Shown: piece after piece, positions 10,811 through 27,713 of the stretch
Numbering within the stretch: position 1 is the stretch's first letter
Layout: the number at the start of each line of letters is the position of its first letter
Source: Labilithrix sp.
GTDB lineage: Bacteria; Myxococcota_A; Polyangia; Polyangiales; Polyangiaceae
Reading direction: 5' to 3'
Length of the DNA: 64,000 nt
NCBI GenBank assembly: GCA_026128965.1
Contig: JAHCIY010000002.1
Span: 1,512,108 to 1,576,107 of the forward strand
Notes under the pieces: model-generated
What the model saw: the letters and a program-made list of their open reading frames with translations, nothing else
Database searches by the model: none
What the model was told of the DNA's origin: nothing
Translations under genes and position numbers: made by a program

Positions 10811-11935
10811 CTATCCTCCGGCGGAGAGCCGCGCGCGCCAGTCGGACGGCAAATCCAAGAAGCCGTCGTTGTAGAGCATGTCGTAGACGGCGTCGCACAC
10901 GACCTCGCAGACCTCGCTGAAGATGACAGGGTCGGCGATGAAGCGGATCGTCTCGGAGCGGAACTGGCTGCTCTGCAGGCGCACGCGCGAGAGCATCTCC
11001 TCTTCCACGAACGGGACGAGGCGGCGCATGAAATGGCGCTCGAAGGCGACGCGGAAGACGGGGAACGTCGTCGCGCTGATCTTGTATCCGCCGGTCGTGC
11101 CGCGGTCGGCGAGGGAGGCCGCTTTGACCACGTCGAGCGAGAGGAAAAAGAGGTTCGGCGGTAGCTCGCGCGTGAAGAAGGTGGAGAGGACCTCGTTCAG
11201 ATAGCTGATCAGCGTATTGAGCTCCGGCGTCGTGCGGGCGAGGAAATCGTTCCGGAGCTGTTTCAGTAATTCATAATATTTGGTGGCGGCCTTCTCGCGG
11301 ACGTCGTTCTCCGGGTCGAACGCGAAGCCGTCGAGCGCGGCGAAGATGGTCGGCTCCGCGTGCTGGAGCGCGTGGAAGAGCGCCTGCTCGTAGAAGCGCA
11401 TCGTCTTCAGCTCGTCCTGCGAGCCGCGGATCTTCTCCGCGAGCTCGCTCTCGAAGAAGACGCGCGCGAAGCGCTTCGCGACCTCGCCGAGCTTCCGCTC
11501 GATCATCGTCGCGAGGCGGTCGGGGCGGAAGATGCGCCCGAGCATGTCGGCGAGGCCCTGGATGAGGTCGTGCTCCAGCTGCGCGCGGTCGAGGACCGGC
11601 GCCGGCCGCGCGTTCGGCGTGACCGACTGGGCGTACTTCACCGCCGTCTGCAGCCCCTGGAGCTCGTGCACCACCTGCGCCGTGATCGCGTCGAGATCGG
11701 GGTTCGTCTCGAGCTCGGCGCGGTAGTGGATGACCTGCGCCTCGAGCTGCTCGTCGCGGAGCGCGAGCGCGATCTCGGCGAGCGACAGCTTGGCCGCGGC
11801 CGTCATGTACCCGGCCGAGTTCGGCATCGGGTTCGAGACGGGCATCGACTCCGACGGCCGCGGCTCGGGCGGCCGCGGCTCGGACATGGGGACGCGATCG
11901 GAGCTCGGTCCCTCGCGCTCGTCCTGTTCCGCCAT
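10811..11935 (-). CDS. hypothetical protein (Pro-rich N-terminus, alpha-helical)
   Basis: Long ORF with coding-like composition and no recognisable domain. Adjacent to rpiB on the same strand. Confidence 0.55.
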   Translation of the reverse strand: MAEQDEREGPSSDRVPMSEPRPPEPRPSESMPVSNPMPNSAGYMTAAAKLSLAEIALALRDEQLEAQVIHYRAELETNPDLDAITAQVVHELQGLQTAVKYAQSVTPNARPAPVLDRAQLEHDLIQGLADMLGRIFRPDRLATMIERKLGEVAKRFARVFFESELAEKIRGSQDELKTMRFYEQALFHALQHAEPTIFAALDGFAFDPENDVREKAATKYYELLKQLRNDFLARTTPELNTLISYLNEVLSTFFTRELPPNLFFLSLDVVKAASLADRGTTGGYKISATTFPVFRVAFERHFMRRLVPFVEEEMLSRVRLQSSQFRSETIRFIADPVIFSEVCEVVCDAVYDMLYNDGFLDLPSDWRARLSAGG

Positions 11936-11969
11936 CGCTAGGCGGGATGATACCTCGTTTGGCCTCCAT

Positions 11970-13703
11970 TTAGCCGTAGCGGTTCGTGAAGCGCATCGCC
12001 TCGGAGTAGGCGAAGAGGTCCTCCTGGATCCCGGCGCGGAGGCGCTCCTGCTGCTCGCGCCAGAAGTCGGCCCGCGCGAGGTCGGGGTGGAGCTCGGTGA
12101 ACGTGTCGCGCTGCGGCCCCGGCGGGAACAGGAACGTCGGGAACTGCTCGGGAAACACGTCCCCCTTCTCGACGTTGAACCACGGCTCGCTGCTCATCTC
12201 GTCGTCGTGGTCGCGCGCCTTCGGGAGGGTGCGGAACCGACACTCGCTCATCGTCACGAGCTCGTCATAATCGTAGAACACGATCCGGCCGAACCGCGTC
12301 AGCCCGAAGTTCTTGAGGAGGAGGTCGCCGGGGAAGATGTCCGCCGCCGCGAGCTCCTTCAGCGCGCGCCCGTACTCGTCGATCGCCGCGCGCTGCTTTC
12401 TGGGGTCCTGGTTCTTCGGGTCCTTCAGGTACACGTCGAGCGGCACGAGCCGTCGCTCGACGTAGAGGTGGCGGATGACGAGCTTGTCGCCGTCGCGCTC
12501 GAGGAGCGACGGCGCGAGCTCCTCGAGCTCGGCGACGAGGCTCGGATCCATCCGGTCGAACGGGAAGGCGACGTGGGTGTACTCGAGCGTGTCGCTCATG
12601 CGGCCGACGCGGTCGGCGAGCTTCACGAACTTGTACCGCTCCTCGACGCTCTTCCGGTCGGTGTCCTTCGGCGGCACGAACCAGTCGCGGATGATCTTGA
12701 AGACGTACGGGTACGACGGCAGCGTGAAGACGACCATGACCATGCCCTTCGTCCCCTCGGCGAGCACGAACGTGTCGGTCGAGTGGCGGAGGTGGTGCTG
12801 GAGGTCACGGAAGAAGAGCGTCTTGCCCTGCTTGCCGAGCCCCACCATCGTGAAGAGCTCCGCCTTCGACTTCGCCGGCGCGACGGTCTGGAGGAACTCC
12901 ACGTAGGCCGACGGTACTTCCATATCGACGAAGAAATACGATCTGCCCAAGCTGAATATCCGCCCGATGTTCTTCTCGTCGAGCAAGAAGGCGTCGAGCT
13001 CGGCTTTTCCGTCGTCGTCGTGCCGAATGGGAATGATGAAAGGGGTAATCACGCCCCCGTTCACCACCCGCCCGATCGCGAACGCGGCTTTGTTGCGGAA
13101 GAACAGCGACCGCAACATCTGGATCTGGAAGTTCGGCCGCCGCTCGAACCCCTTCGGGAAGTGGTCCGCGACCGCGCGCTGGACGTAGGCGAGGTCCCGG
13201 TCGAGGTCGGCGAAGGGCGTCGTGAGCTGGAAATCGAGGAGCGCCTGCTTCAGCGTCTCCTTCAGGTCCGTGTCGTGCGGGTAGTAGCAGCGGTAGGTCG
13301 GCTCGGTCCCCTCGAGGTGCTCGGTCGACGTCGCGGGCCGCGAGAAGATGTAGTCGTTCCGGTAGTACCGCCGGTCGAGGATGCGCCGCGCGACGGAGTT
13401 GAAGAACGTCTCGGCGCACTCGGGCTGGTAGTGGTCGTGGAGCAGTCCGATGTACGCGCGCTTGATCGCGGGCCACAGCGCCTCTTCGATCACGGCGCCC
13501 TCGAGCGCGACGTGGATCGCGTCCACGCCCTCGCGGACGCGCTGATCGTACATGTCGATGCGCGTCCGTGACGCCTCGCGGACCTCGGCCCAGTCCTGCC
13601 GCTCCCAGCGCTCCTTCGCGCGCGCGCTCGTGGCGCGGAAGAGCCGGTAGTGGCGGTCGAACCCATCCAGGATCGTGCGAGCAATCGAGACCGCGTCGGG
13701 CAT
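11970..13703 (-). CDS. aceK: bifunctional isocitrate dehydrogenase kinase/phosphatase AceK
   Basis: The N-terminus IARTILDGFDRHYRLFRATSARAKERWERQDWAEVREASRTRIDMYDQRV aligns with the E. coli AceK N-terminus. The length is about 577 aa. Confidence 0.9.
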   Translation of the reverse strand: MPDAVSIARTILDGFDRHYRLFRATSARAKERWERQDWAEVREASRTRIDMYDQRVREGVDAIHVALEGAVIEEALWPAIKRAYIGLLHDHYQPECAETFFNSVARRILDRRYYRNDYIFSRPATSTEHLEGTEPTYRCYYPHDTDLKETLKQALLDFQLTTPFADLDRDLAYVQRAVADHFPKGFERRPNFQIQMLRSLFFRNKAAFAIGRVVNGGVITPFIIPIRHDDDGKAELDAFLLDEKNIGRIFSLGRSYFFVDMEVPSAYVEFLQTVAPAKSKAELFTMVGLGKQGKTLFFRDLQHHLRHSTDTFVLAEGTKGMVMVVFTLPSYPYVFKIIRDWFVPPKDTDRKSVEERYKFVKLADRVGRMSDTLEYTHVAFPFDRMDPSLVAELEELAPSLLERDGDKLVIRHLYVERRLVPLDVYLKDPKNQDPRKQRAAIDEYGRALKELAAADIFPGDLLLKNFGLTRFGRIVFYDYDELVTMSECRFRTLPKARDHDDEMSSEPWFNVEKGDVFPEQFPTFLFPPGPQRDTFTELHPDLARADFWREQQERLRAGIQEDLFAYSEAMRFTNRYG

Positions 13704-13752
13704 TGCCGCCCCACTCTACACCGTCGGCTCACGGCGCCGGCACAAATATACC

Positions 13753-13783
13753 TTGACGAGTACATACCTTTCAGAGCATATAA
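13753..13783 (+). promoter_or_regulatory. sigma70-like promoter for the arsR-SRPBCC operon (-35 TTGACG, -10 TATAAT)
   Basis: TTGACG, then a 19-bp spacer, then CATATAAT, ending 6 bp before the ATG at 13789. Lies in the divergent aceK/arsR intergenic region. Confidence 0.5.
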
Positions 13784-13788
13784 TCCTC

Positions 13789-14142
13789 ATGCTTCAGACG
13801 ACGCTCGCGGCGCTCGCGGAGCCGAACCGTTTCCGCATCGTCGAGCTGCTCCGCACGGGGCCGCGCGCGGTGAGCGAGATCACCGAGGGCCTGTCGCTCT
13901 ATCAGGTGCAGGTCTCGAAGCACCTCCGCGTGCTCAAGGAGGCGGGGCTGGTCGAGGTGCAGCCGCGCGCGCAGCAGCGCGTCTACACGCTGCGCTCGGA
14001 GCCGCTGCTCGAGCTCCACGGATGGTTGGAACGATACCGGCAGCTCTGGGAAGCACGCTTCGAAGAGATGGACGAGCTCCTCGAGGAGCTCAGGAAGAAG
14101 AAGGAGACGAGCCATGGCCGAAAAACCAAGCGCAAAGACTGA
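13789..14142 (+). CDS. ArsR/SmtB family transcriptional regulator
   Basis: LAEPNRFRIVELLRTGPRAVSEITEGLSLYQVQVSKHLRVLKEAGLV is an HTH_20 signature. Confidence 0.85.
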   Translation: MLQTTLAALAEPNRFRIVELLRTGPRAVSEITEGLSLYQVQVSKHLRVLKEAGLVEVQPRAQQRVYTLRSEPLLELHGWLERYRQLWEARFEEMDELLEELRKKKETSHGRKTKRKD

Positions 14143-16649: not shown

Positions 16650-16723
<74 letters not shown>

Positions 16724-16772
16724 CTGATAGCCGTACCACGACCCAGCCCTCGGCCCTCCGCCGGGGGCTTCG

Positions 16773-18039
16773 TCATTTCGGCGAGCGCGACGAGCGGGAG
16801 GAAGGTTGCCTCCGCGACGTAGACGCCGTCGTCTCCGGGGGTGAGCAGGATTCGTCCGCCTTCGAACATCCGGCGTAGAGCCTCGCGGGCGCGGAGGGGG
16901 TCCGCGGCGAGCACGGCGTCGAGGTCCTTCGCGCGTTCGAGGACGCGGTCGGGGTCGGGAGGTCCACGGGAGCGTTCATCCGGTCCTTGATGTTCTGAAT
17001 CGCCGTGCGTTCCGTGAGAGCTTGTGCCTCAAGGTCCCGAAGGGCGTCGCGGACCGAACTGGAATGGTCGCCGTCGGCGATGAAGGTGACGAGCCCGCGT
17101 ATGCGTTGCTCCGTCCGGGCGAGGCGGTCGAGCCTCTCCTTCATCTCGTGCTGTGCGAGCCGCGCGGCCTCACCGAGGTGCTCTGCAATGCGCTTGCGAA
17201 GGTGGGCCACCGCAGCCGGTGTGAAGACGGCTTCACGAAGCGCGCCATAGATGCGGGCGCGGACGAGGTCCTCTCGTACCGACAGGGCGTTCTTGCAGAC
17301 GCCCCGCTTCTTCGAGTCCCCGCAGCGATAGTACGAAGTTCGCGGTCCGACCGCCTTGCCGTCGACCTCCGCTCGGGAGCCGCCGGAGATGACCATCGGC
17401 GAGTGGCACGCTGCGCAGATGAGGAGTCCGGAGAGAGGGTAGGCCGTGCGGGCGCCGGGCGCAGACCGCGTCATCCGCTTTACCGTGTATCGACTCCGTA
17501 CTTCGGCGAGACGGGTCCGGACTCTTGTCGGGGACGCTGCAGTATCCAAGCGGGAGCCCGCCGGTCGAGTAGCCGGCGTTGAACTGACTCTCAAGCCCGC
17601 GCAGAGTCTTGTCGCGAAGAGCGTCGAGATAGAGGTCGGCGACCAGGCTCGACATCGTGAACGTCAGCTTGGCCGTCTTCAGTCCCGTGTTGACGCCATC
17701 GGCGACGCCTATGAGGGCGACGTCGAGGTACTGGAGGCGCTTGAAGATGAACGCCGCGTCGGCGAAGTCTCGCGACACGCGCGACATGTCCTCGACGAGA
17801 ATGACGTCGACCCGCTTCTCTTCGACGGCCTTCATCAGCCGCTCGAACCCCGGGCGTTGGAGGCTAGCGGCGCTGACGGCCTCGTCCTTGAAGATGAGCG
17901 CGGGAATCACCTCGGCTCCCGACGCTCGCGCCGCTTCCACGCACCGTCGTACTTGGTCATCGGTTGACCGTTCGTTCTGCAGGGCCGACGAGTGCCGTGC
18001 ATAGACGGCGATTTGCTTGCCGGCAAGGGTACTAGTCAT
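16773..18039 (-). pseudogene. large serine recombinase, disrupted by a frameshift and an internal deletion
   Basis: The resolvase domain (KQIAVYARHSS...VDVILVEDMSRVSR) plus GGLPLGY lie in the frame of ORF 17233..18162. The zinc ribbon (YPLSGLLICAACHSPM) and coiled coil lie in the frame of ORF 16773..17594. Only about 25 codons separate GY from the zinc ribbon where about 90 aa of recombinase domain are expected. Confidence 0.65.
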
Positions 18040-18685
18040 CGCGTACACCGGGTACGTCAGCATGACGAGCATCTCGGACGTCGGTCGTGGTCGAGGTCCG
18101 GCACCAGCCGAGCGCTTCACCGCCGAGACGCACATCGCGCCGACGCAGGTGGGCAAGGGCATCGCGGGTCCTCTCTCCGATGGCCTCGCGCTCCCACTGC
18201 GCCACCGACCCGATGATGTGGAGCACGAGACGTCCCGAGGCGGTACGGGTGTCGATGGAGTCGCCGAGGGAGAGTAGGGAGTGGCGCCGGGAGAAGTACC
18301 GCTCGACGAGGTCGCCGAGGTCGCGGACGCTGCGGGTTAGGCGGTCGAGTTTCACGACGAGAAGTCCGTCGGCTTCGTCGGCGTCGAGGCGCCCGAGGGC
18401 GCGGAGCAGTCCGGGTCGGCCCACCACCGTCTTCGCGGAGATGCCCGCGTCCTCCTCAATGGTGACGAGGTCGAGGTCCATCGCCTCTGCGTAGGCGGTG
18501 AGCTTGGCCCTCTGTGCTTCGAGGGAGGTGCCGGCGTCCGCCTGACCGTCCGTGCTGACCCGGATGTACCCGACCACGCGTGTTCCCAAGGCGTCACCTC
18601 CTTGCGAAGGGGTACCCCGGGGTGGTCCTCGTTTTCGAGATGGGCATCTCGTAAACGGCAAGTACCCCATTCCGATGGCTTCCAC
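18032..18685 (-). CDS. small serine recombinase, catalytic domain only (C-terminal HTH missing)
   Basis: VVGYIRVSTDGQ...LLVVKLDRLTRS...GSVAQWEREAIGERT is a resolvase/invertase catalytic domain. It has no DNA-binding HTH. It ends 7 bp inside the next recombinase gene. The true start is likely the GTG at 18577. Confidence 0.55.
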   Translation of the reverse strand: MEAIGMGYLPFTRCPSRKRGPPRGTPSQGGDALGTRVVGYIRVSTDGQADAGTSLEAQRAKLTAYAEAMDLDLVTIEEDAGISAKTVVGRPGLLRALGRLDADEADGLLVVKLDRLTRSVRDLGDLVERYFSRRHSLLSLGDSIDTRTASGRLVLHIIGSVAQWEREAIGERTRDALAHLRRRDVRLGGEALGWCRTSTTTDVRDARHADVPGVRDD

Positions 18686-18738
18686 TTGGCTGCGCCAGGC
18701 GGCTTGACATCCATCCAGGTCGCCATCATCATTCTTGG

Positions 18739-19212
18739 ATGACAGTTCGTCTTTCGGTCTTGCGACGCGGAACTCAGGTCGAGATTGAGGGGCCCGAGGC
18801 CTTCGTAACGAGCACTTTCGAGAGCTTGAGGGACCTGTTCGACAAGCCGAATGTTAAGGATGATAGCGCGGATGAACCGCCCACCAACGATGGCGAAAAG
18901 GCTGGCGAGGAAGGTTCGAGGGTGTCGCTCAAGACGTTCCTTGAGCAGAAGAAGCCTCAAAACTCCTACGAGGCCATCGCGTGCGTTCTCTATCACCACC
19001 AAAAGTTCCGCGAGCAGAGCGAACTGAACTCTGACGAGATACGGAAGGCGCTCCTCCAAGGCCGCGTGAAGCCGCCGGGGAACATGACGCAGACGCTTAC
19101 AGACTGCCGTCGCCGCTACGCGTACATCGAGCCTGGGACGAAGAAGGGACTCTGGAAGTTGAGCCACGACGGAGAGGTGACGGTCGACCTGGACCTGCCG
19201 CGCGAAAAATGA
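18739..19212 (+). CDS. hypothetical protein with a winged-helix-like domain shared with the two downstream proteins (cassette gene A)
   Basis: Low-GC gene with an ATGA overlap to the next gene. The region SLKTFLEQKKPQNSYEAIACVLYHH...KKGLWKLSHDGE aligns with 20391..21020 and with the N-terminus of 19209..20336. Confidence 0.6.
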   Translation: MTVRLSVLRRGTQVEIEGPEAFVTSTFESLRDLFDKPNVKDDSADEPPTNDGEKAGEEGSRVSLKTFLEQKKPQNSYEAIACVLYHHQKFREQSELNSDEIRKALLQGRVKPPGNMTQTLTDCRRRYAYIEPGTKKGLWKLSHDGEVTVDLDLPREK

Positions 19213-20336
19213 GTGAGACGTTTTCGGAGCTGTATGCGCAGCTACCTCGGGGGAAAAGGTCTCCAAGGAATGCCGTTCTTCTCGGTCTCCTCGTTCTTCG
19301 CGCGGATAAAGCCGCCTCGGCCGTCGACAGTAATGCCATTTCGGCTGAGCTGAAACTGCGCCTCGGCAAGGCGGCTCCTGGCAATGTGCCTGACGTTTTG
19401 AGGAAGGCCATTCCTCGAGTGGAATGCACTCGGGTCGCTAAAAGCGGACTGCGTTGGCATCTCACGAGGACAGGTGTCGACGAGCTTCGATCATACGGAC
19501 TTCAAGTGTCGCAGGAGAAGGCGGCACCGCCTGCTCGGTCGTTCGATGTCGCCATTGTCTGCGCTCTGCACAGTCCTGAACTTCACGAGGTTCTGAACGC
19601 GTTCGGAGGCGAGTCGAAATGGCAGAGCCAGCCCGACTTCGGTCAAACCCACATATACAAATCAATTGACGTGCCGTTGTCGGGCGCACCGCCTCTGAGT
19701 GTTGTGGCCGGAGCCCCCACGCACATGGGGCTTACTGCAACTGCCATCATCTCCACGCAAATGCTGCTCATGTTTAGACCTCGGCTCATCGTGATGGTCG
19801 GAATTGCAGCGGGCACGAAGGCCTCGGGACGAAACTACGGTGACATCTTGGTCGCTAACCCCAGCGTGGACTACGCGTCCGGCAAGATTGCGGTAGTTGA
19901 CGGCGTTGAGACATTTCAGCCCGATCCGTTTCCCTTGCCGGTCGACTCCAGACTGCACACGCTGGTCCAGGAAGATCGACGTACGAGAGAGGGACTGGAC
20001 GAGATCGCTGGTACTTGGGGCGGCGCCCGGCCCCGAACTTCGCTCAATATCCACATTGGTGCACTCGGGGCAGCGGACCAAGTGGTTGATAGCGAAAAGC
20101 GAATCCTCGATATCAAGAAGAACTGGCGAAAGTTGATCGGCGTCGAGATGGAGACGTATGCCCTCTACCGTGCTGCGCATGAGGCCCCGCGGCCGAAGCC
20201 TCTCTACGTGAGCTTCAAGTCAGTCTGTGACTTTGCTGCCGCGAAGGACGACGCGTGGCAGGAGTACGCCGCCTTTACAGCGGCTCAGTACTGTCGCCGT
20301 TTCCTGCTCAAAAACTGGTCTGTGCTCAGTGCCTGA
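19209..20336 (+). CDS. fusion of the shared winged-helix-like domain (N-terminus) with a PNP/UDP-phosphorylase family nucleosidase (MTA/SAH-nucleosidase fold) domain (cassette gene B)
   Basis: The C-terminal 270 aa read FDVAIVCALHSPE...IVMVGIAAGT...GVEMETYALYRAA, which is the PNP_UDP_1 fold. The N-terminus PRNAVLLGLLVL...PGNVPDVLRKAI...KSGLRWHLTRTG resembles the domain in genes A and C. Confidence 0.7.
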   Translation: MSETFSELYAQLPRGKRSPRNAVLLGLLVLRADKAASAVDSNAISAELKLRLGKAAPGNVPDVLRKAIPRVECTRVAKSGLRWHLTRTGVDELRSYGLQVSQEKAAPPARSFDVAIVCALHSPELHEVLNAFGGESKWQSQPDFGQTHIYKSIDVPLSGAPPLSVVAGAPTHMGLTATAIISTQMLLMFRPRLIVMVGIAAGTKASGRNYGDILVANPSVDYASGKIAVVDGVETFQPDPFPLPVDSRLHTLVQEDRRTREGLDEIAGTWGGARPRTSLNIHIGALGAADQVVDSEKRILDIKKNWRKLIGVEMETYALYRAAHEAPRPKPLYVSFKSVCDFAAAKDDAWQEYAAFTAAQYCRRFLLKNWSVLSA

Positions 20337-20390
20337 CAACTGAGTTCATTCATATCCAATATTCATTTTCGTGCGAGCGCAAGAGCGCCA

Positions 20391-21020
20391 TTGGGGACAG
20401 GAAGCTTTATGAGCGAAGATGCGAAGTCTGATTTTATGGCGGCGGAAGAGATTAAGAAGATTCTGCACGGTCGGCAAAAGGCAGAACAGGAACGCATCGT
20501 CCGATGGGTGAGTGAGAGCCTTGAGCTTGCCGGTGCAGCGGTCAAGCCGAAGGTCGAACACGCGCACCCGGGCGTTCACGTTCCCGCGACGCTTGCGGAC
20601 ACGCCCTCGAGGCCCAGAGACGGAGAGGCAGGGCCCAAGGACTTTCGAAGCTTCTTCCAAGAGAAGCAGCCGAAGAACGATGTTCAGTTCGTGGCCGTGG
20701 CCGCGTACTACCACCGCTTCATGGCACCCGCCGCTGACCGCAAGGAGGCGATTTCGTCTGCAGACCTCCAGGACGCAGCGCGTCTCGCCCCCTGGACCGT
20801 TTTCGCGAAACCGAGCAAGACACTCGGCAACGCTGTGCGGCAAGGCTACATGAACGGCTCTGGAAGAGGCACGTACCGATTGAATGCAGTGGGCGAGAAC
20901 CTGGTGTCCATGACACTTCCGGGGACGGCCACGACTGGTTCAACTAAGGGCGGCCGCGGGAAGCGGCGACCATCGAAGAAGGCGGGAGCAAAGAAGTCAC
21001 GGAAGTCCGGCAAGGGATGA
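20391..21020 (+). CDS. hypothetical protein with the shared winged-helix-like domain and a Lys/Arg/Gly-rich C-terminal tail (cassette gene C)
   Basis: DFRSFFQEKQPKNDVQFVAVAAYYHRF...GRGTYRLNAVGE is a paralogue of gene A. The tail is GSTKGGRGKRRPSKKAGAKKSRKSGKG. ATGA overlap with the next gene. Confidence 0.6.
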   Translation: MGTGSFMSEDAKSDFMAAEEIKKILHGRQKAEQERIVRWVSESLELAGAAVKPKVEHAHPGVHVPATLADTPSRPRDGEAGPKDFRSFFQEKQPKNDVQFVAVAAYYHRFMAPAADRKEAISSADLQDAARLAPWTVFAKPSKTLGNAVRQGYMNGSGRGTYRLNAVGENLVSMTLPGTATTGSTKGGRGKRRPSKKAGAKKSRKSGKG

Positions 21021-21820
21021 GTGACACACTCGGACATATCGAGGCGGCCATCGCCGAGGTGGCACGGGCACGAAGCGCAGTGCAGCGTTCAAAGTCCCCC
21101 CAAGTCCGTGGCGCCGAAGAACGTGACGGTCTGAAGGCCGTGGCCTATGCGTGGTTCAAGACCCACAAGCCGCGCGTCGGAGACCTCGACGTGAGTGCTG
21201 TCGACAATGCATACCAGAAGGTTCTCGACGCCACCGCGAAGGCCGCCGCTCGGTCTACCTACGTGAGCACGCTGAAGGCGGCAAAGGACGCGCTCGTCAC
21301 TCTCCGTCGCCTTGTGACTGCAGTCCCTGTCCGGAATAGCAAGACGACAGCGGATGCGCCGCCGCCATTTGCGTCGCTTACCGGAGATGTCGCCATGCAG
21401 GAGATTCTCACCCGACGATGGACTGAGGTGCAGACCTGCATCAACGCGGGAGCCAATCTGGCGGCGACCGTGATGATGGGCGGCCTAATGGAGACGCTGC
21501 TTCTTGCGCGCATCAACGTCGTCGCGAACAAAGCCCCCATCTACACTGCGAAGAATGCACCCAAGGACAAGGCCGGCAAGACACTGTCGCTCAATGACTG
21601 GAAGTTGGTCGCCATGGTAGAAGTTGCGCACGAAGTTGGATGGATAACGAAGTCCGCCAAGGATGTCGGGAACGTCCTTAGAGACTTTCGGAACTACATT
21701 CACCCGCACAAGGAACACACCGATGGCATCTTGATAGGCGCGGAAGACGCGCGTGTGTTCTGGGAGGTTTGCGGGGCTATCAGTCGGCAACTCCTGGCCT
21801 CGACTGGCAAGATTCCCTGA
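21017..21820 (+). CDS. HEPN-like protein with a putative R-x6-H nuclease motif (cassette gene D)
   Basis: Alpha-helical protein. The C-terminal motif DFRNYIHPHKE fits the Rx4-6H pattern of HEPN RNases. Translationally coupled to gene C. Confidence 0.55.
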   Translation: MSDTLGHIEAAIAEVARARSAVQRSKSPQVRGAEERDGLKAVAYAWFKTHKPRVGDLDVSAVDNAYQKVLDATAKAAARSTYVSTLKAAKDALVTLRRLVTAVPVRNSKTTADAPPPFASLTGDVAMQEILTRRWTEVQTCINAGANLAATVMMGGLMETLLLARINVVANKAPIYTAKNAPKDKAGKTLSLNDWKLVAMVEVAHEVGWITKSAKDVGNVLRDFRNYIHPHKEHTDGILIGAEDARVFWEVCGAISRQLLASTGKIP

Positions 21821-21854: not shown

Positions 21855-22499
21855 CTAAGACACGTCGTCTACACGACACAGCCGGACGCCGACACGCTGC
21901 CTGAGGTCGTGGTACGGCCCGCGTATCGCCCCCGCGCAACTACTCGCAGAATACCGCGGATCTTGGTCCGCACCCCGCCGCCCTCCCTGGTCCGCCACGG
22001 AGGGCGGAGTCGTTAGTAGGACCAGCGGGAGGATCTCGGACTCGGCGACGTAGAACCCGCCCGGTTGAGGGTTGAGTCGAATCTTCCCGTCATGGAAGAG
22101 GCGCCTGAGCTCTTCCCGTCCCTTGGAGACGTCCGCCATCAGGCGACGCTCGAGATCGAAGACCAGCGCGGTCATCCCCTCCGGCGTCGGGAGGGAGATC
22201 GGCACCGTGGCGTCGCGCTCGAGGGCCTTTACCTGGCGACGGAGGACCTTCGCTTCGGTTTCGAGCGTCTTCAACCGTTCGCGGATCGTCGGCGAACCTT
22301 GGCCGTCCGCGATGAAGTCGACCATCGACGAACCGCAGACCCCGCAGACAAGGAGCGAGGAGAAGAGGTACGAGCTCGCGCGTCCCGGAAGCGCGCGCCC
22401 CTTCGGCGAAGTCCGACGACATGATCGCGACGCTCGTCGTCTTCGGGCCACCGAGCTCGGGCGGCAACGTGAGGAAGGCATCGCCGTAGCGGTCTCCAT
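21855..22499 (-). pseudogene. C-terminal remnant of a second large serine recombinase (zinc ribbon + coiled coil)
   Basis: SSYLFSSLLVCGVCGSSMV...LKTLETEAKVLRRQVKALE parallels the C-terminus of 16773..18039. There is no catalytic or recombinase domain upstream. Confidence 0.55.
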
Positions 22500-22657: not shown

Positions 22658-22843
22658 CTAGACGACGCCCGCCCAGGTCGCATCGTAGGTGAGGTCGGCG
22701 ACCCAGAGCTGGTTCGGTCGCTCGGCGTGGAACTCTCGCGGCGCGAGGCCCGGCGGCCGCGGCGACGCGTCGTCGGCCTCGGTGGTGATCTTGAACGCGC
22801 GTCCGCGGACGGCGGCTGCGAAGCGTTCGCCACGAAGTGACAA
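22658..22843 (-). mobile_element. IS3-family transposase (rve integrase core) fragment
   Basis: FHAERPNQLWVADLTYDATWAGVV matches the start of the IS3 OrfB catalytic core. Only about 60 codons remain. Confidence 0.5.
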
Positions 22844-22884
22844 GTGGCGTCCCCTTCAGGTATGGTCGGCTCGGAAGCGCGGTC

Positions 22885-23577
22885 ATGGTCGTCTTGCGTC
22901 AGCGGAGCACGCGGATTCGTTTCGTCATCCCTCACGCGCTGTTGGCGTTGCTGGCCGTGGTTGCGGCGTGCAGCTCATCGAGCACGGCCGGTGGAACTGT
23001 GCCGTGCGAGGTCGAATGCGACGGGGACGAGGTCTGCTCCGCAGGGAAGTGCGTCCCAGCGACGGACGCCTCGACATCCGAGACGGGCACGAAGCAGGAC
23101 GGCGAGTCGTGCGTCATCACCGGCTCGAACTGTGACCCGTCTTGCTTGGAGTCCTGCGGTGCGTCGTCGTCCTGCGTCGACCGGTGCTGTCCCGATACGA
23201 AGGGCGCGGGCATCCTCTGCGGCGGTCAGTGCGTCGCGCCGAAATGCAAAAAGGGCGAGACCTCCTCGACGTGGGAGGGGTTCTCGGAGCGCGAGTGGAC
23301 CTGCTACGAGATAGCCGGCGGCTGCGACTGCACGAACACGTCGACGCGCGCCGAACTGGTGGCGGACGGCATGAAGATCTTGCCGAGCTGCGCTGGCGCC
23401 TCCTGCGCAATCGATCTCGACTCGCCTGCTCTGACCTGCACGTGCCGCGCGACGGGCACATCACTCCCGCGCGACTGCCCCGGGACCGTCTGCACGGCAG
23501 GCGTCTTGGCTTGCACGGGACCGTTCAACTTCAAGTGCGATGACCCGTGCGTCGGGGTCGCCGTGCTCCATCCGTAA
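22885..23577 (+). CDS. cysteine-rich secreted lipoprotein
   Basis: Signal peptide with lipobox (LLALLAVVAAC-SSS). More than 30 Cys in CxxC/CxC arrangements. Native high GC, so it lies outside the island. Confidence 0.6.
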   Translation: MVVLRQRSTRIRFVIPHALLALLAVVAACSSSSTAGGTVPCEVECDGDEVCSAGKCVPATDASTSETGTKQDGESCVITGSNCDPSCLESCGASSSCVDRCCPDTKGAGILCGGQCVAPKCKKGETSSTWEGFSEREWTCYEIAGGCDCTNTSTRAELVADGMKILPSCAGASCAIDLDSPALTCTCRATGTSLPRDCPGTVCTAGVLACTGPFNFKCDDPCVGVAVLHP

Positions 23578-23984: not shown

Positions 23985-26900
23985 GTGTGGGAGCGCTTTG
24001 AGCTTGGCGCGCGTGTGAACGGCGGCGGGATGGGGGACGTGTATCGCGCGGTCGATCGCGTGACGGGGGACGTCGTCGCGGTGAAGCGGATGCGCACCGT
24101 TCAGGCGGAGGCTACGCAGCGCTTCTTGCGGGAGAGCCGGCTCCTCGAGGCCGTGAGCCATCCTGGCATCGTGCGCTACGTCGCGCACGGCATCGATGAC
24201 GACGGCGCCGCGTGGCTCGCGATGGAGTGGCTCGATGGCGAAGACCTCGGGGAGCGGCTCGCGCGAAAGGCGCTCGCGCCGGCGGAGTCGCTCGAGGTGG
24301 CCGCGCTCGTCGCGGAGGCGCTCGGCGCCGCTCATCGCGCCGGCGTCGTCCATCGCGACGTGAAGCCGAGCAACGTGTTCCTCGTCGGCCGCGACCCGAA
24401 GGACGTGCGGCTGCTCGATCTCGGGATCGCGAAGCCGCTCCGCGGCACGGCGATCACGGCCGCCGGGATGATGGTCGGTACGATCGGTTATCTCTCGCCC
24501 GAGCAGGCGCGCGGCAAGCCCGTCGACGCGCGGAGCGACGTCTTCTCGCTCGGGTGTCTGCTCTTCGAGTGCCTCACCGGGCGGTCCGCCTATCACGCGG
24601 AGCACGCCGCCGCCGTGGTCGGGAAGCTCCTCACCGAGGCGCCGCCCGCGCCGAGCAGCGTCGACCCGAGCTTCGCGCGGTACGACGCATTGTTCGCGCG
24701 GTTGCTCGCGCCGCTCGAGCAGCGCCTCTCGGACGGCGCCGCCGTGGCGCGGGCGATCCGCGCGCTCGAAGCGGAGGCGTCGGGCGCGGCGGCGAAGTCG
24801 GTCCCGCCCTCGAAGCTCACCGACCGCGAACGACAGGCGCTCACCGTCGTGCTCGCGCGCCCGCATGGGCTCGACCCGAGCGGCGCGACCGAAGCGGAGG
24901 CCTCCGAAGAGCGCAAGCGACAGCGCCTCGCGCATGCGGCCGCGGCCGCACATGCACGGCATGAATGGCTGCCGGGCGGCCTCTTCCTCTTCGTTTGGGA
25001 GCTCGACTCGGCGCGCGATCAGACCATCCGCGCCGCGCGTTTCGCGCTCGCGCTGCAGCACGAAGGCGGATACACGATCGCGCTCGCGACCGGCTTCGGC
25101 GAGCGCGCCGGCTCGAACGCGGTCGGCGGCGTCATCGATCGCGCCGCGAGCCTCGTCTCGCGCGCGGGCGAGGTCTCCGTCGCGCTGGACCCCGCGTCGA
25201 TCGAGATCCTGCGCCATCGCTTCGAGATCGACGGCGCGCGGCTGGGCGCGGAGCTCGCGCGCGCGCACGAGATCGCGGACCGAACGCCGTTCGTCGGACG
25301 CGACCGCGAGATGCGGCTCATCACGAGCTTGCTCGACGAGTGCGTCGCCGACGGCACGACGCGGGCGATCCTCGTCACCGGCGAGGCCGGCGCGGGGAAG
25401 TCGCGGCTCCTGCGCGAGCTCCTGCGACGAAGCGCTCCCGAGCGCGTCTGGATCGCGCGCGGCGATCCGATGCGCCCGGGCTCGCCCTACACGATGCTCT
25501 CGCAGCTCCTTCGGCGCGCCGCGGGAATGAGCGCGACGGCGACCGATCGCGGGGCCTTCGTCCGCGCCCTCCGCGCGCTCGTCGCGGACGAAGGCGCGCT
25601 CGAGCTGCTCGCGCACGTCGCGGGCTTCGTCGATGAAGCGCCGAGCGCCGCGTTGCGCGCGGCGCAGAATAGCCCGTCCGTCATGGCGACGCACATCCGG
25701 CAGGCGGCCCTCGCCCTCTGCGCGGCGGGCGCGGGCGAAGGCCTGCTCGTCGTGATGCTCGAAGACCTGCATTGGGCGGACGCGCCGAGCCTTCGAGTCT
25801 TCGAGTCGCTCGTGCACGCGGTGGAGCACCCGATCTTCATCGTCGGCGCCGCGCGGCCGACCTTTCACGAGACGTTCCCCGGGATCTGGACGAGCCAGGG
25901 CGTCGAAGAGCTGCGCCTCGCCGGGCTCGCGCGCAAGGCCGCGGAGGCGCTCGCGCTCGCCCTTCGGCCCGGCGCGAGCAGCGAAGCCGTTCGCCACGCC
26001 GTCGATCGCGCCGGCGGCAGCCCGCTCTGGCTCGAAGAGCTGTTCCGGCACGGCGGGGGCGACTCCGCGGAGACGCCCGATTCGCTCCTCGCCGTCATCC
26101 AGACGCACTTGGCGCGGGAGCCGTCGAACGAGCGCCTCGTCCTGCGCGCGGCGGCGGTGTTCGGCGAGCGCGCGTGGCTCGACGGTATCGCCCTGCTCGC
26201 CGGACGAGCCGCGTCCGAGATCGAGCTCGCGGTCGCTTCTCTCGTCGAGAAGGAGTGGCTGGTGCCCCTCGAAGCGTCGCGCTTCGCCGGCGAGCGCGAG
26301 GTGCGCTTCCGCCATGGCCTGCTCCGCGACGCCGCCTACGCCGCCTTGACGAGCGAAGACCGCAAGGTGGGGCACCGCCTCGCGGCGGAGTGGCTCCGGG
26401 CCGCCGGTGAACGCGACGCGCTCTCGCTCGCGGAGCACTACGAGCGCTCCGAGACGCCGGCGGCGGCGATCCCACATTTCGTCGTCGCCGCGCGCGAAGC
26501 CTCGATGGCCAACGATCTCGACGCGGCGCTCCTGTGCGCTGCGCGCGGGATCGCGCTCGGCGCCACCGGCAGCGACCTGCATCGACTCTTGCTCGCCGAA
26601 GGGAGCGCGCTCAGCTGGCGTGGCAAGGTGAGGGAAGGCTGGCGATCGTTCGACCGTGCGTTGCGCGAGACGGCGACCGCGAGCGCGGATCCGGCCGTCG
26701 TCTCGTGGGCAGCGATGAGCGGCGCGATGAACATGGACGCGTCGATGACGAGGCGCGCCGCGAACGCGCTCGAGTCGCTCGACCCCGCCACGTGCCCCGG
26801 CGACGACTACCAGCAAGCCGCTAGCTTCGTCGTCGTCGCGCTCTATTGGGACGGCGAGCGCGAGCGCGCCGACGCGGTGCTCGCCAAGCTCGCGCTCCTG

Positions 26901-27713
26901 CCCGACGATCCCGATCCGCGGGCGCGCGGCTGGAACGCGCACAGCCGCGCGCAGCACGCCCGCTTCAGCCTGGGGAACACGTGGCTCGATCGAGCGGCGT
27001 GCTTGGAGAGCGAGCGGGCCTTCGAGGAGGCGCGCGACCCCGCGGGCTACGGCCACTCGCTCAGCCAGCTCGTCATCGCGGAGCTCTCGCTCGACGCGCG
27101 TGAAGAGGCGACGGCGTACGGTACACGCGGGTACGCGCAGGCGCAGAAGTACTCGTTGCCGATCCTGAACGCGTGGTCGCTCCCGGTGACCGCGCTCGCG
27201 ATGCCCGATCCCGCCTCGGCGAGGGCGCGCGTCGAAGAGTCGATCCGCAGCGCCTCGATGCTGGGCGACGGCGTCTTCGGCGCGTATTCGCTCGTGCTCA
27301 CGGCTCACGTGCAGCGCATCCTCGGCGATCCCGAAGGCGCGATCGACACGCTGACGAAGGTGCTGTCGCAGGAGCCGGCCTTCGCCGTCGACTGCGCCTG
27401 CCACATGCAGCTCGCCGGCGCGCTCTTCGAAGCCGGCCGCGCGGAGGAGGCCGCCGCGGAGTGCATGACCGTCGTCGCGGCGACGCAGCACCGGCATCTT
27501 CACGGCGCGCTCGACCTCGACTTCTTCGCGACGAGCGCCGAGACGATGCTCGCCGTCGGACAGGTCGATGCGTGCCGGATGGTGCTCGCGCGCGGGCAGA
27601 AGGTCATCGCGCGCCGCGCGGACGCGATCGACGAGCCCGCGCGACGAGAGCGCTTCCTGACGTGCACGTTCGCGCAGCGGCTTCGACGTGTCGCCGCCGA
27701 GCTCGCCCGGTGA
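23985..27713 (+). CDS. serine/threonine protein kinase with degenerate cyclase-like domain, AAA/STAND NTPase domain and TPR repeats
   Basis: Kinase motifs VAVKRM, HRDVKPSNV, DLGIAK. Walker A GEAGAGKSRLLRE. C-terminal TPR-like repeats. This is the myxobacterial PknK-like architecture. Confidence 0.85.
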   Translation: MWERFELGARVNGGGMGDVYRAVDRVTGDVVAVKRMRTVQAEATQRFLRESRLLEAVSHPGIVRYVAHGIDDDGAAWLAMEWLDGEDLGERLARKALAPAESLEVAALVAEALGAAHRAGVVHRDVKPSNVFLVGRDPKDVRLLDLGIAKPLRGTAITAAGMMVGTIGYLSPEQARGKPVDARSDVFSLGCLLFECLTGRSAYHAEHAAAVVGKLLTEAPPAPSSVDPSFARYDALFARLLAPLEQRLSDGAAVARAIRALEAEASGAAAKSVPPSKLTDRERQALTVVLARPHGLDPSGATEAEASEERKRQRLAHAAAAAHARHEWLPGGLFLFVWELDSARDQTIRAARFALALQHEGGYTIALATGFGERAGSNAVGGVIDRAASLVSRAGEVSVALDPASIEILRHRFEIDGARLGAELARAHEIADRTPFVGRDREMRLITSLLDECVADGTTRAILVTGEAGAGKSRLLRELLRRSAPERVWIARGDPMRPGSPYTMLSQLLRRAAGMSATATDRGAFVRALRALVADEGALELLAHVAGFVDEAPSAALRAAQNSPSVMATHIRQAALALCAAGAGEGLLVVMLEDLHWADAPSLRVFESLVHAVEHPIFIVGAARPTFHETFPGIWTSQGVEELRLAGLARKAAEALALALRPGASSEAVRHAVDRAGGSPLWLEELFRHGGGDSAETPDSLLAVIQTHLAREPSNERLVLRAAAVFGERAWLDGIALLAGRAASEIELAVASLVEKEWLVPLEASRFAGEREVRFRHGLLRDAAYAALTSEDRKVGHRLAAEWLRAAGERDALSLAEHYERSETPAAAIPHFVVAAREASMANDLDAALLCAARGIALGATGSDLHRLLLAEGSALSWRGKVREGWRSFDRALRETATASADPAVVSWAAMSGAMNMDASMTRRAANALESLDPATCPGDDYQQAASFVVVALYWDGERERADAVLAKLALLPDDPDPRARGWNAHSRAQHARFSLGNTWLDRAACLESERAFEEARDPAGYGHSLSQLVIAELSLDAREEATAYGTRGYAQAQKYSLPILNAWSLPVTALAMPDPASARARVEESIRSASMLGDGVFGAYSLVLTAHVQRILGDPEGAIDTLTKVLSQEPAFAVDCACHMQLAGALFEAGRAEEAAAECMTVVAATQHRHLHGALDLDFFATSAETMLAVGQVDACRMVLARGQKVIARRADAIDEPARRERFLTCTFAQRLRRVAAELAR

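Follow-up and report, generated by a model that had tools for sequence, protein, structure and literature searches.

Two adjacent two-gene modules pairing small winged-helix proteins with predicted PNP and HEPN effectors in a Labilithrix genome

PNP domains of the Cap17/DtcC type cleave ATP and dATP and abort infection (Rousset et al. 2023, bioRxiv 10.1101/2023.01.24.525353). HEPN domains with an Rx4-6H motif serve as RNases in toxin-antitoxin (TA), abortive-infection (Abi) and clustered regularly interspaced short palindromic repeat (CRISPR) systems, and DUF4145 and Ymh (PF09509) are both HEPN families (PMC3710099). RAZR, which is of the DUF4145 type, is a phage-activated abortive-infection RNase (PMC13017515), and PD-lambda-3 has been validated as an abortive-infection system (PMC13190303). 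In the type IX retron, the N-terminal domains of a winged-helix protein wrap a HEPN nuclease, its C-terminal helix-turn-helix binds nucleic acid, and the nuclease is kept off until a phage trigger arrives (bioRxiv 10.64898/2026.07.14.738597). Effectors of both the PNP and the HEPN kind are predicted at a locus in a 64,000-nucleotide (nt) stretch of DNA from a metagenome-assembled genome of Labilithrix sp., each encoded behind a small winged-helix protein. This stretch is called the window, and all positions are window coordinates unless another locus is named.

The locus comprises four intact open reading frames (ORFs) on one strand, designated genes A to D, at 18739-21820:

18739 to 19212, + strand: gene A, 157 residues, small winged-helix partner of B (ORF list; AlphaFold2 model)
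19209 to 20336, + strand: gene B, 375 residues, winged helix fused to a PNP domain (Pfam, PADLOC, hhalign, BLASTP)
20391 to 21020, + strand: gene C, 209 residues from TTG 20391 or 203 residues from ATG 20409, small winged-helix partner of D (ORF list, BLASTP)
21017 to 21820, + strand: gene D, 267 residues, predicted HEPN protein (ORF list, predicted structure, family alignment)

Genes A and B share an ATGA overlap at 19209-19212, and genes C and D share another at 21017-21020. Both overlaps and the four intact same-strand ORFs had been described in an earlier sequence-only reading of the window, and all are borne out. That reading had also placed the genes in a low-G+C segment acquired horizontally. 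The G+C content of 18739-21820 is 0.590, compared with 0.712 elsewhere in the window, and is the minimum among 3-kb stretches of the 64 kb; the next lowest value outside the region is 0.66. At third codon positions, G+C is 0.65-0.75 in A-D and about 0.90 in neighbouring host genes. Horizontal acquisition is thus supported. The AT-rich gap between B and C measures 54 nt, as had been stated, if C begins at TTG 20391, the listed start. It measures 72 nt with ATG 20409, which is the more likely start of C, judged by a Shine-Dalgarno sequence (AGGAAG) 6 nt upstream and by the coincident N-termini of homologues.

The four genes probably constitute two independent two-gene conflict modules of the TA or Abi kind, lying side by side, in which a partner would control an effector. 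This reading is based on the conserved catalytic residues of B and D, the tight two-gene operons in which a small partner of nucleic-acid-binding fold comes first, the long disordered linker of the partner, the individual mobility of the modules, and the swapping of effectors. The earlier proposal of two related, translationally coupled pairs, each made of a small winged-helix partner and an effector, is supported. The accompanying proposal of one four-gene cassette fails, since the four-gene neighbourhood is not conserved.

The small partners are modular proteins. The AlphaFold2 model of A has a predicted local distance difference test score (pLDDT) of 89.5. It is sequentially composed of a β-hairpin and a helix (residues 1-35, 18739-18843), a disordered linker (residues 36-62), and a C-terminal winged helix-turn-helix (wHTH) domain (residues 63-152, 18925-19194). 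Gene C encodes an N-terminal helical module (20418-20537), a linker, a wHTH domain (residues 78-177 of the 209-residue form, 20622-20921), and a Lys/Arg-rich tail (20946-21017). A and C are paralogues, as had been suggested, and share 28% identity over about 100 residues (BLASTP, E=1e-8). A profile built from A and C retrieves 1,703 clusters at 50% identity among 1.84 billion representatives (E<=1e-3), and most of these proteins have 150-220 residues. A, C, and D have no significant match in Pfam, NCBIfam, PADLOC, or PHROGs. Searches of PDB sequences with A-family and D-family profiles yield no match.

The same domain forms the N-terminus of B, in agreement with the earlier claim. Residues 4-93 of B (19218-19487) align with residues 63-149 of A in hhalign (90%, E=1.7e-6). 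The relation emerges only from profile-profile comparison, and the N-terminus of B has no significant BLASTP match to A or C (E=1.4). The annotated NCBI product of B (KIT84_18635) has 276 residues and thus omits the winged-helix domain, in the region 19209-19505. The 375-residue form starting at ATG 19209 is supported by 109 full-length homologues.

Residues ~112-370 of B (19542-20318) contain the predicted PNP domain (Pfam PF01048, E=2.7e-15). This domain is far closer to DtcC of V. alginolyticus (BLASTP, 84 bits, E=3e-22; DtcC sequence from the supplement of bioRxiv 10.1101/2023.01.24.525353) than to housekeeping methylthioadenosine nucleosidases (MTANs) in the PDB, of which the best scores 30 bits. 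The match of B to the NCBIfam MtnN model reaches 43 bits (E=3e-11), against a cutoff of 169 bits. D341 of B aligns with the catalytic D353 of DtcC in BLASTP. E124, the G198-G202 loop, E313-M314-E315, and D341 are invariant in the 109 B homologues, and among them E124, E313, E315, and D341 are residues of catalytic type.

Among A-D, PADLOC models match only the PNP domain of B, by PDC-M60C (E=4e-63) and by the PN effector of the cyclic-oligonucleotide-based antiphage signalling system (CBASS). The locus has no match to a named system, as had been noted. The strong match to PDC-M60C is accounted for by an operon on the Bacillus toyonensis plasmid pBtP18 (locus L111, 675-5777). This Detocs-like three-gene operon encodes a 1,141-residue protein, a 159-residue response regulator, and a 407-residue REC-PNP protein that is 40% identical to B in the PNP domain. 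The PDC-M60C profile has the same length of 407, and PDC-M60, a candidate system in PADLOC, appears to correspond to Detocs. By these sequence comparisons, the PNP domain of B is assigned to the Detocs/Cap17 immune ATP-nucleosidase type, an effector of known kind and not a housekeeping enzyme. The sequence-only reading was right that B is not the REC-PNP protein of Detocs, as residues 1-105 form a wHTH domain, yet the PNP domain is of the Detocs/Cap17 type.

The model of D (pLDDT 89) consists of an N-terminal four-helix domain (residues 1-102, 21017-21322), a linker, and an all-α C-terminal domain (residues 125-261, 21389-21799) that agrees with the HEPN core fold. The Rx6H motif noticed earlier, R222-x6-H229, is a conserved feature of the family. 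It lies within the block VLRDFRNYIHPHK, which shows little or no variation across 64 members with identity down to 27-30%. R225, N226, H229, and K232 are invariant in these divergent members, and R222 is conserved in at least 90% of them; the motif from R222 to K232 spans 21680-21712. The family contains more than 1,687 proteins (90% clusters) and has no Pfam domain. DUF4145 (PF13643) is matched by 11 of the 64 members, all below the 23.1-bit cutoff (best E=4e-4), and no other Pfam family recurs in more than three. DUF4145 also matches distant relatives of the C-terminal domain of D and the effector of an A-type operon. A Foldseek search of the PDB with the D model returned nothing at E<=1e-3 and only weak matches to Csm2 and HEPN proteins. 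D is probably a divergent DUF4145-like HEPN RNase.

A plasmid search with D recovered just distant relatives of its C-terminal domain. On the Paraburkholderia plasmid pBIL (locus L108, 3557-5640), such a relative adjoins an integrase and overlaps a PIN-domain gene. On a Streptomyces plasmid (locus L109, 1-8393), the gene of another is coupled to that of a giant AAA protein, with TIGR02679/TIGR02680 (Wadjet-like) genes alongside.

The neighbourhoods of D relatives were compared in 80 genome loci from more than 10 phyla (Myxococcota, Verrucomicrobiota, Planctomycetota, Acidobacteriota, Pseudomonadota, Bacteroidota, Chloroflexota, Actinomycetota, Nitrospirota, Saccharibacteria, and others). In 72 loci the gene directly 5′ of the D relative is a C homologue, and contig ends cut most of the other eight. 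The two genes are spaced by -4 to +27 nt in 58 of the 63 loci measured. No B relative occurs within 6 kb at any of the 80. The flanks vary by locus, a pattern that suits individually mobile TA or Abi pairs, and contain housekeeping genes with a few defence or mobile-element genes (RhuM, AbiEii, TrwB, Cro/C1 helix-turn-helix, NYN). C-D is thus an autonomous, individually mobile pair, given the upstream C, the tight gap, the lack of a nearby B, and the unrelated flanks. Homologues of the pair are present in the cultured strains Alloalcanivorax marinus R8-12, Niastella caeni HX-16-21, and Anaeromyxobacter soli SG29.

Close relatives of A were examined in 13 metagenome loci, found with a narrower A-family alignment, and in one further locus (L006). 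In 11 of the 13 and in L006, the next gene overlaps that of the A relative and encodes a wHTH-Ymh(HEPN) protein of 241-258 residues. The first ~100 residues of these proteins are 35-49% identical to the N-terminal wHTH of B, and a Ymh (PF09509) HEPN domain occupies the C-terminal position of the PNP domain. They match the PADLOC models PD-Lambda-3_B (E=1.6e-9) and Aga_HEPN. B homologues are mostly paired with a different small protein, designated E-type, encoded upstream or downstream. This holds for the closest B homologues (58-60% identity), which have no adjoining A or C-D. The E-type partners are unrelated to the wHTH of A and C (hhalign below 5%); their N-terminal helical module is homologous to the N-terminus of C (hhalign 94%, E=1.5e-7). 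The partners are therefore mosaics of an N-terminal module, α or β, and a wHTH or other C-terminal domain. Together with interchangeable effectors (wHTH-PNP, wHTH-Ymh, and four-helix-HEPN) they make up a combinatorial network, in which the window holds a rare combination, A with wHTH-PNP, beside a very common one, C-D.

Several variants were seen among the homologous loci. A three-gene arrangement in locus L094 (3992-5736), and likewise in L093, encodes, besides an A-type protein, another small one of 142 residues and a 253-residue protein with a sub-threshold DUF4145 match (E=2.4e-4). In locus L106 (206-1434), the gene of a divergent A-family member overlaps that of a 252-residue protein with an RSKRGTAH (Rx4H-like) motif and a tail that looks wHTH-like by eye. 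This protein may be a HEPN-wHTH effector with reversed domain order, the hhalign support being weak (2%). Two genes 5′ of the closest B homologue, in locus L110 (429-1031), lies a gene for a 200-residue protein with a weak match to MtlR, a HEPN family, and an RNTFAH motif.

For the two conflict modules, we infer as follows the activity and toxicity of the enzymes, their inhibition by the partner, and what triggers them. In module 1 (A-B), active B would cleave ATP and dATP to adenine and ribose triphosphate, and growth would stop. In module 2 (C-D), D would act as a HEPN RNase and C as its dedicated partner. The upstream coupled partner would bind the effector via its N-terminal module and hold it inactive, with an additional winged-helix/winged-helix contact possibly contributing to inhibition in A-B. 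The winged helix of the partner would bind nucleic acid. When the partner is lost, titrated, or re-targeted during phage infection or stress, the effector would be freed, leading to ATP depletion by B or RNA cleavage by D. An inhibitor is preferred to a sensor or activator as the role of the partner, by analogy with antitoxins and with the winged-helix protein of the type IX retron.

Some observations weigh against this reading. It is unusual, under a simple antitoxin model, for effector and partner to have the same wHTH. In a crude test on the regions 5′ of 11 A-type and 61 C-type genes, perfect inverted repeats are not enriched, and classic autoregulation through an autorepressor and operator is therefore unsupported. 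D was found in none of 50,697 phage genomes, and IMG/VR contains one partial match. The 123 flanking ORFs of C-D loci include a handful of defence or mobile-element genes, a non-quantitative observation by which enrichment in defence islands is not demonstrated. The small winged-helix proteins could instead be sensors or activators, which would respond to a nucleic acid or protein of the phage by turning on otherwise inert effectors, for example by making them oligomerise. Activation of this kind is known from RAZR, Avs, and Detocs, and those immune effectors of the PNP and DUF4145-HEPN types that have been characterised respond to a trigger and are not restrained by a labile antitoxin (bioRxiv 10.1101/2023.01.24.525353; PMC13017515). 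The wHTH carried by B itself would be expected of a sensor domain, and the lack of operator-like palindromes upstream points in the same direction. However, a small first gene overlapping the second and a long disordered linker are typical of an antitoxin-like partner, and the winged-helix protein of retron IX is an inhibitor. We regard a sensor role as less likely than an inhibitory one. A buffering role for A is improbable. On this view A would act as a decoy: as a free version of B's regulatory domain, it would compete for the ligand or signal and block auto-activation, comparable to the buffering of DtcC by DtcB, a free REC protein, in Detocs. A and B do have the wHTH in common, the PNP domain of B is of the Detocs type, and Detocs-like operons have a separate REC gene 5′ of the one for REC-PNP (DtcB/DtcC, bioRxiv 10.1101/2023.01.24.525353). 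The analogy is purely architectural, however, and it leaves unexplained both C-D, where D has no wHTH, and the usual pairing of B homologues with an unrelated E-type partner.

The neighbourhood data bear most directly on the idea that A-D form a single integrated four-component system, which they largely refute. Adjacency, a common strand, one low-G+C block, and the kinship of A and C would all suit such a system. Yet B relatives are missing from the 6 kb around D in all 80 loci compared, the closest B homologues occur without A or C-D beside them, A relatives are paired with other effectors, and the 54-72 nt AT-rich gap separates B from C. A four-component system is thus very improbable. Even less credible is a set of ordinary metabolic or regulatory genes, namely a nucleoside-salvage nucleosidase, MarR-like regulators, and an unrelated helical protein. 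The weak match of B to MtnN-type models, far under the cutoff, and the wHTH, a common regulator fold, are what such a set would offer. Against it stand the much greater proximity of B to DtcC than to MTANs, the foreign composition of the segment, its position between recombinase remnants (listed below), the swapping of effectors to HEPN domains, and the invariant HEPN motif kept in D. Two side-by-side conflict modules remain the preferred reading.

The effector domains of the locus are of known kinds. The D family, the superfamily of A/C wHTH partners, the replacement of REC by a wHTH on an immune ATP nucleosidase, and the combinatorics of partners and effectors are not described in the literature and libraries searched. 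Tentatively, we propose that the A/C proteins are an undescribed superfamily (~1,700 clusters at 50% identity) of hyperpromiscuous partners and that the two-gene systems they form, anti-phage or TA in function, represent a new combinatorial class present in more than 10 bacterial phyla. In this speculative scheme, mosaic N-terminal modules plus a wHTH would couple to interchangeable suicide effectors (an immune ATP nucleosidase, HEPN proteins of the Ymh and DUF4145-like kinds, and probably further types), and the common wHTH would be a signal-sensing or homotypic switch, like REC in Detocs. Should the reading of the locus be confirmed, immune ATP nucleosidases would have a new regulatory logic in which a winged-helix switch does the work of a two-component phosphorelay, CBASS, or an NLR module. 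D would stand for a new HEPN toxin family with a dedicated partner, widespread (over 1,600 proteins when clustered at 90%, from more than 10 phyla) and currently without a Pfam or PADLOC model. The partners would also be the second case, after Panacea-type antitoxins, of a single partner domain serving many unrelated effectors. The cultured carriers of C-D make the idea directly testable, and the annotation of defence and TA genes in environmental genomes could benefit from models of C, D, and the A family.

The cassette is surrounded by remnants of mobile elements:

16650 to 16724, + strand: tRNA-Met gene (ARAGORN)
16773 to 18685, - strand: broken serine-recombinase genes, frameshifted or truncated, in overlapping or out-of-frame ORFs (Pfam)
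16773 to 17594, - strand: Zn-ribbon fragment of a serine recombinase (Pfam PF13408, E=3.9e-10)
17233 to 18162, - strand: Resolvase-domain fragment (PF00239, E=1e-25)
18032 to 18685, - strand: second, truncated Resolvase N-terminal domain (PF00239, E=1e-34)
18704 to 18732, + strand: weak sigma-70-like promoter match just 5′ of A, TTGACA-17-CATCAT (consensus scan)
21855 to 22499, - strand: C-terminal fragment of another serine recombinase, without the catalytic domain (weak PF13408, E=0.0099)
22658 to 22843, - strand: IS3-type transposase fragment, from the motif RPNQLWVADLTY read in the ORF translation only

The tRNA-Met gene, the serine-recombinase pieces on both sides, and the IS3-like fragment confirm a decayed integrative element, as had been claimed from the broken recombinases. 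The tRNA-Met gene is likely its integration site, and the four-gene segment is supported as its horizontally acquired cargo. The earlier suggestion that intact ORFs among broken recombinases reflect selection on this cargo is plausible. The promoter match upstream of A is not significant, with one match found and 0.6 expected by chance. An imperfect 9-nt inverted repeat, 18705-18713 (TGACATCCA) and 18736-18744 (TGGATGACA), covers the -35-like box and the start codon of A. It is a possible operator; similar repeats are not enriched in homologous loci.

Other features lie nearby. G+C is also lowered at 11000-14000 (0.65-0.67 compared with about 0.71), beyond a sulfate-permease gene, and this stretch is possibly more foreign DNA. 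At the island edge, a Cys-rich ORF of 246 residues (22837-23577, + strand) has a hydrophobic N-terminus and no Pfam match. Directly 3′ of the island, an ORF of 1,242 residues (23985-27713, + strand) contains an HRDVKPSN Ser/Thr-kinase motif, a P-loop (GEAGAGKS), and a long helical region, and looks like a kinase-STAND/AAA-TPR-type protein.

Detocs (DtcA-DtcB-DtcC) and B share a Cap17/DtcC-type PNP effector domain, in which D341 of B corresponds to the catalytic Asp (D353 in DtcC, D472 in Cap17). B has a winged helix instead of REC, however, and its only partner is the small wHTH protein A, with no free REC. Membership in Detocs is rejected, as no HisKA or HATPase domain occurs in A-D or the flanking ORFs and no REC domain was found. 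D resembles RAZR (a zinc finger plus a DUF4145 HEPN domain) and Ishtar (a HEPN DUF4145/DUF3644 domain plus a β domain; bioRxiv 10.64898/2026.07.06.735840) in having a divergent DUF4145-type HEPN domain with Arg and His, the similarity being sub-threshold (best E=4e-4). RAZR and Ishtar, in which the Arg and His are essential, are single-gene systems with other accessory domains, whereas D begins with a four-helix domain and comes with an obligate wHTH partner encoded upstream. The N-terminus of D lacks a Cys4 zinc finger, which together with the obligate partner gene excludes D from RAZR.

Like C-D, the type IX retron pairs a HEPN nuclease with a protein of N-terminal effector-binding modules and a C-terminal wHTH. 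The retron HEPN domain lacks a canonical Rx4-6H motif, whereas D has Rx6H, and the likeness drawn here is one of architecture. The locus is not assigned to this retron type: the cassette and its flanks contain no reverse transcriptase domain, RVT is not among the top families in the 123 flanking ORFs, and non-coding RNA was not searched. HEPN-MNT systems (HepT-MntA, type II/VII TA) differ in that the partner C is a wHTH protein and not a nucleotidyltransferase, and in the additional N-terminal domain of D. C has no nucleotidyltransferase match and is a wHTH paralogue of A, so membership is rejected here as well. AbiE (AbiEi plus AbiEii) also has a small upstream wHTH partner. It is rejected because a single C homologue matches AbiEi_4, at E=0.1 only, the cassette contains no AbiEii, and the effectors are PNP and HEPN proteins.

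The PD-lambda-3 system is linked to the locus through homologous operons only, in which the Ymh-type effectors of A relatives match PD-Lambda-3_B; A-D themselves match none of its models and are not members. Panacea (NetFlax, PMC10440598) offers a likeness in organisation, one partner domain associated with several unrelated toxin domains. The overall layout of the two modules is that of generic type II TA systems: each is bicistronic and tightly coupled, as seen in the ATGA overlaps and the C-D gap, with a small wHTH partner encoded upstream of its effector.

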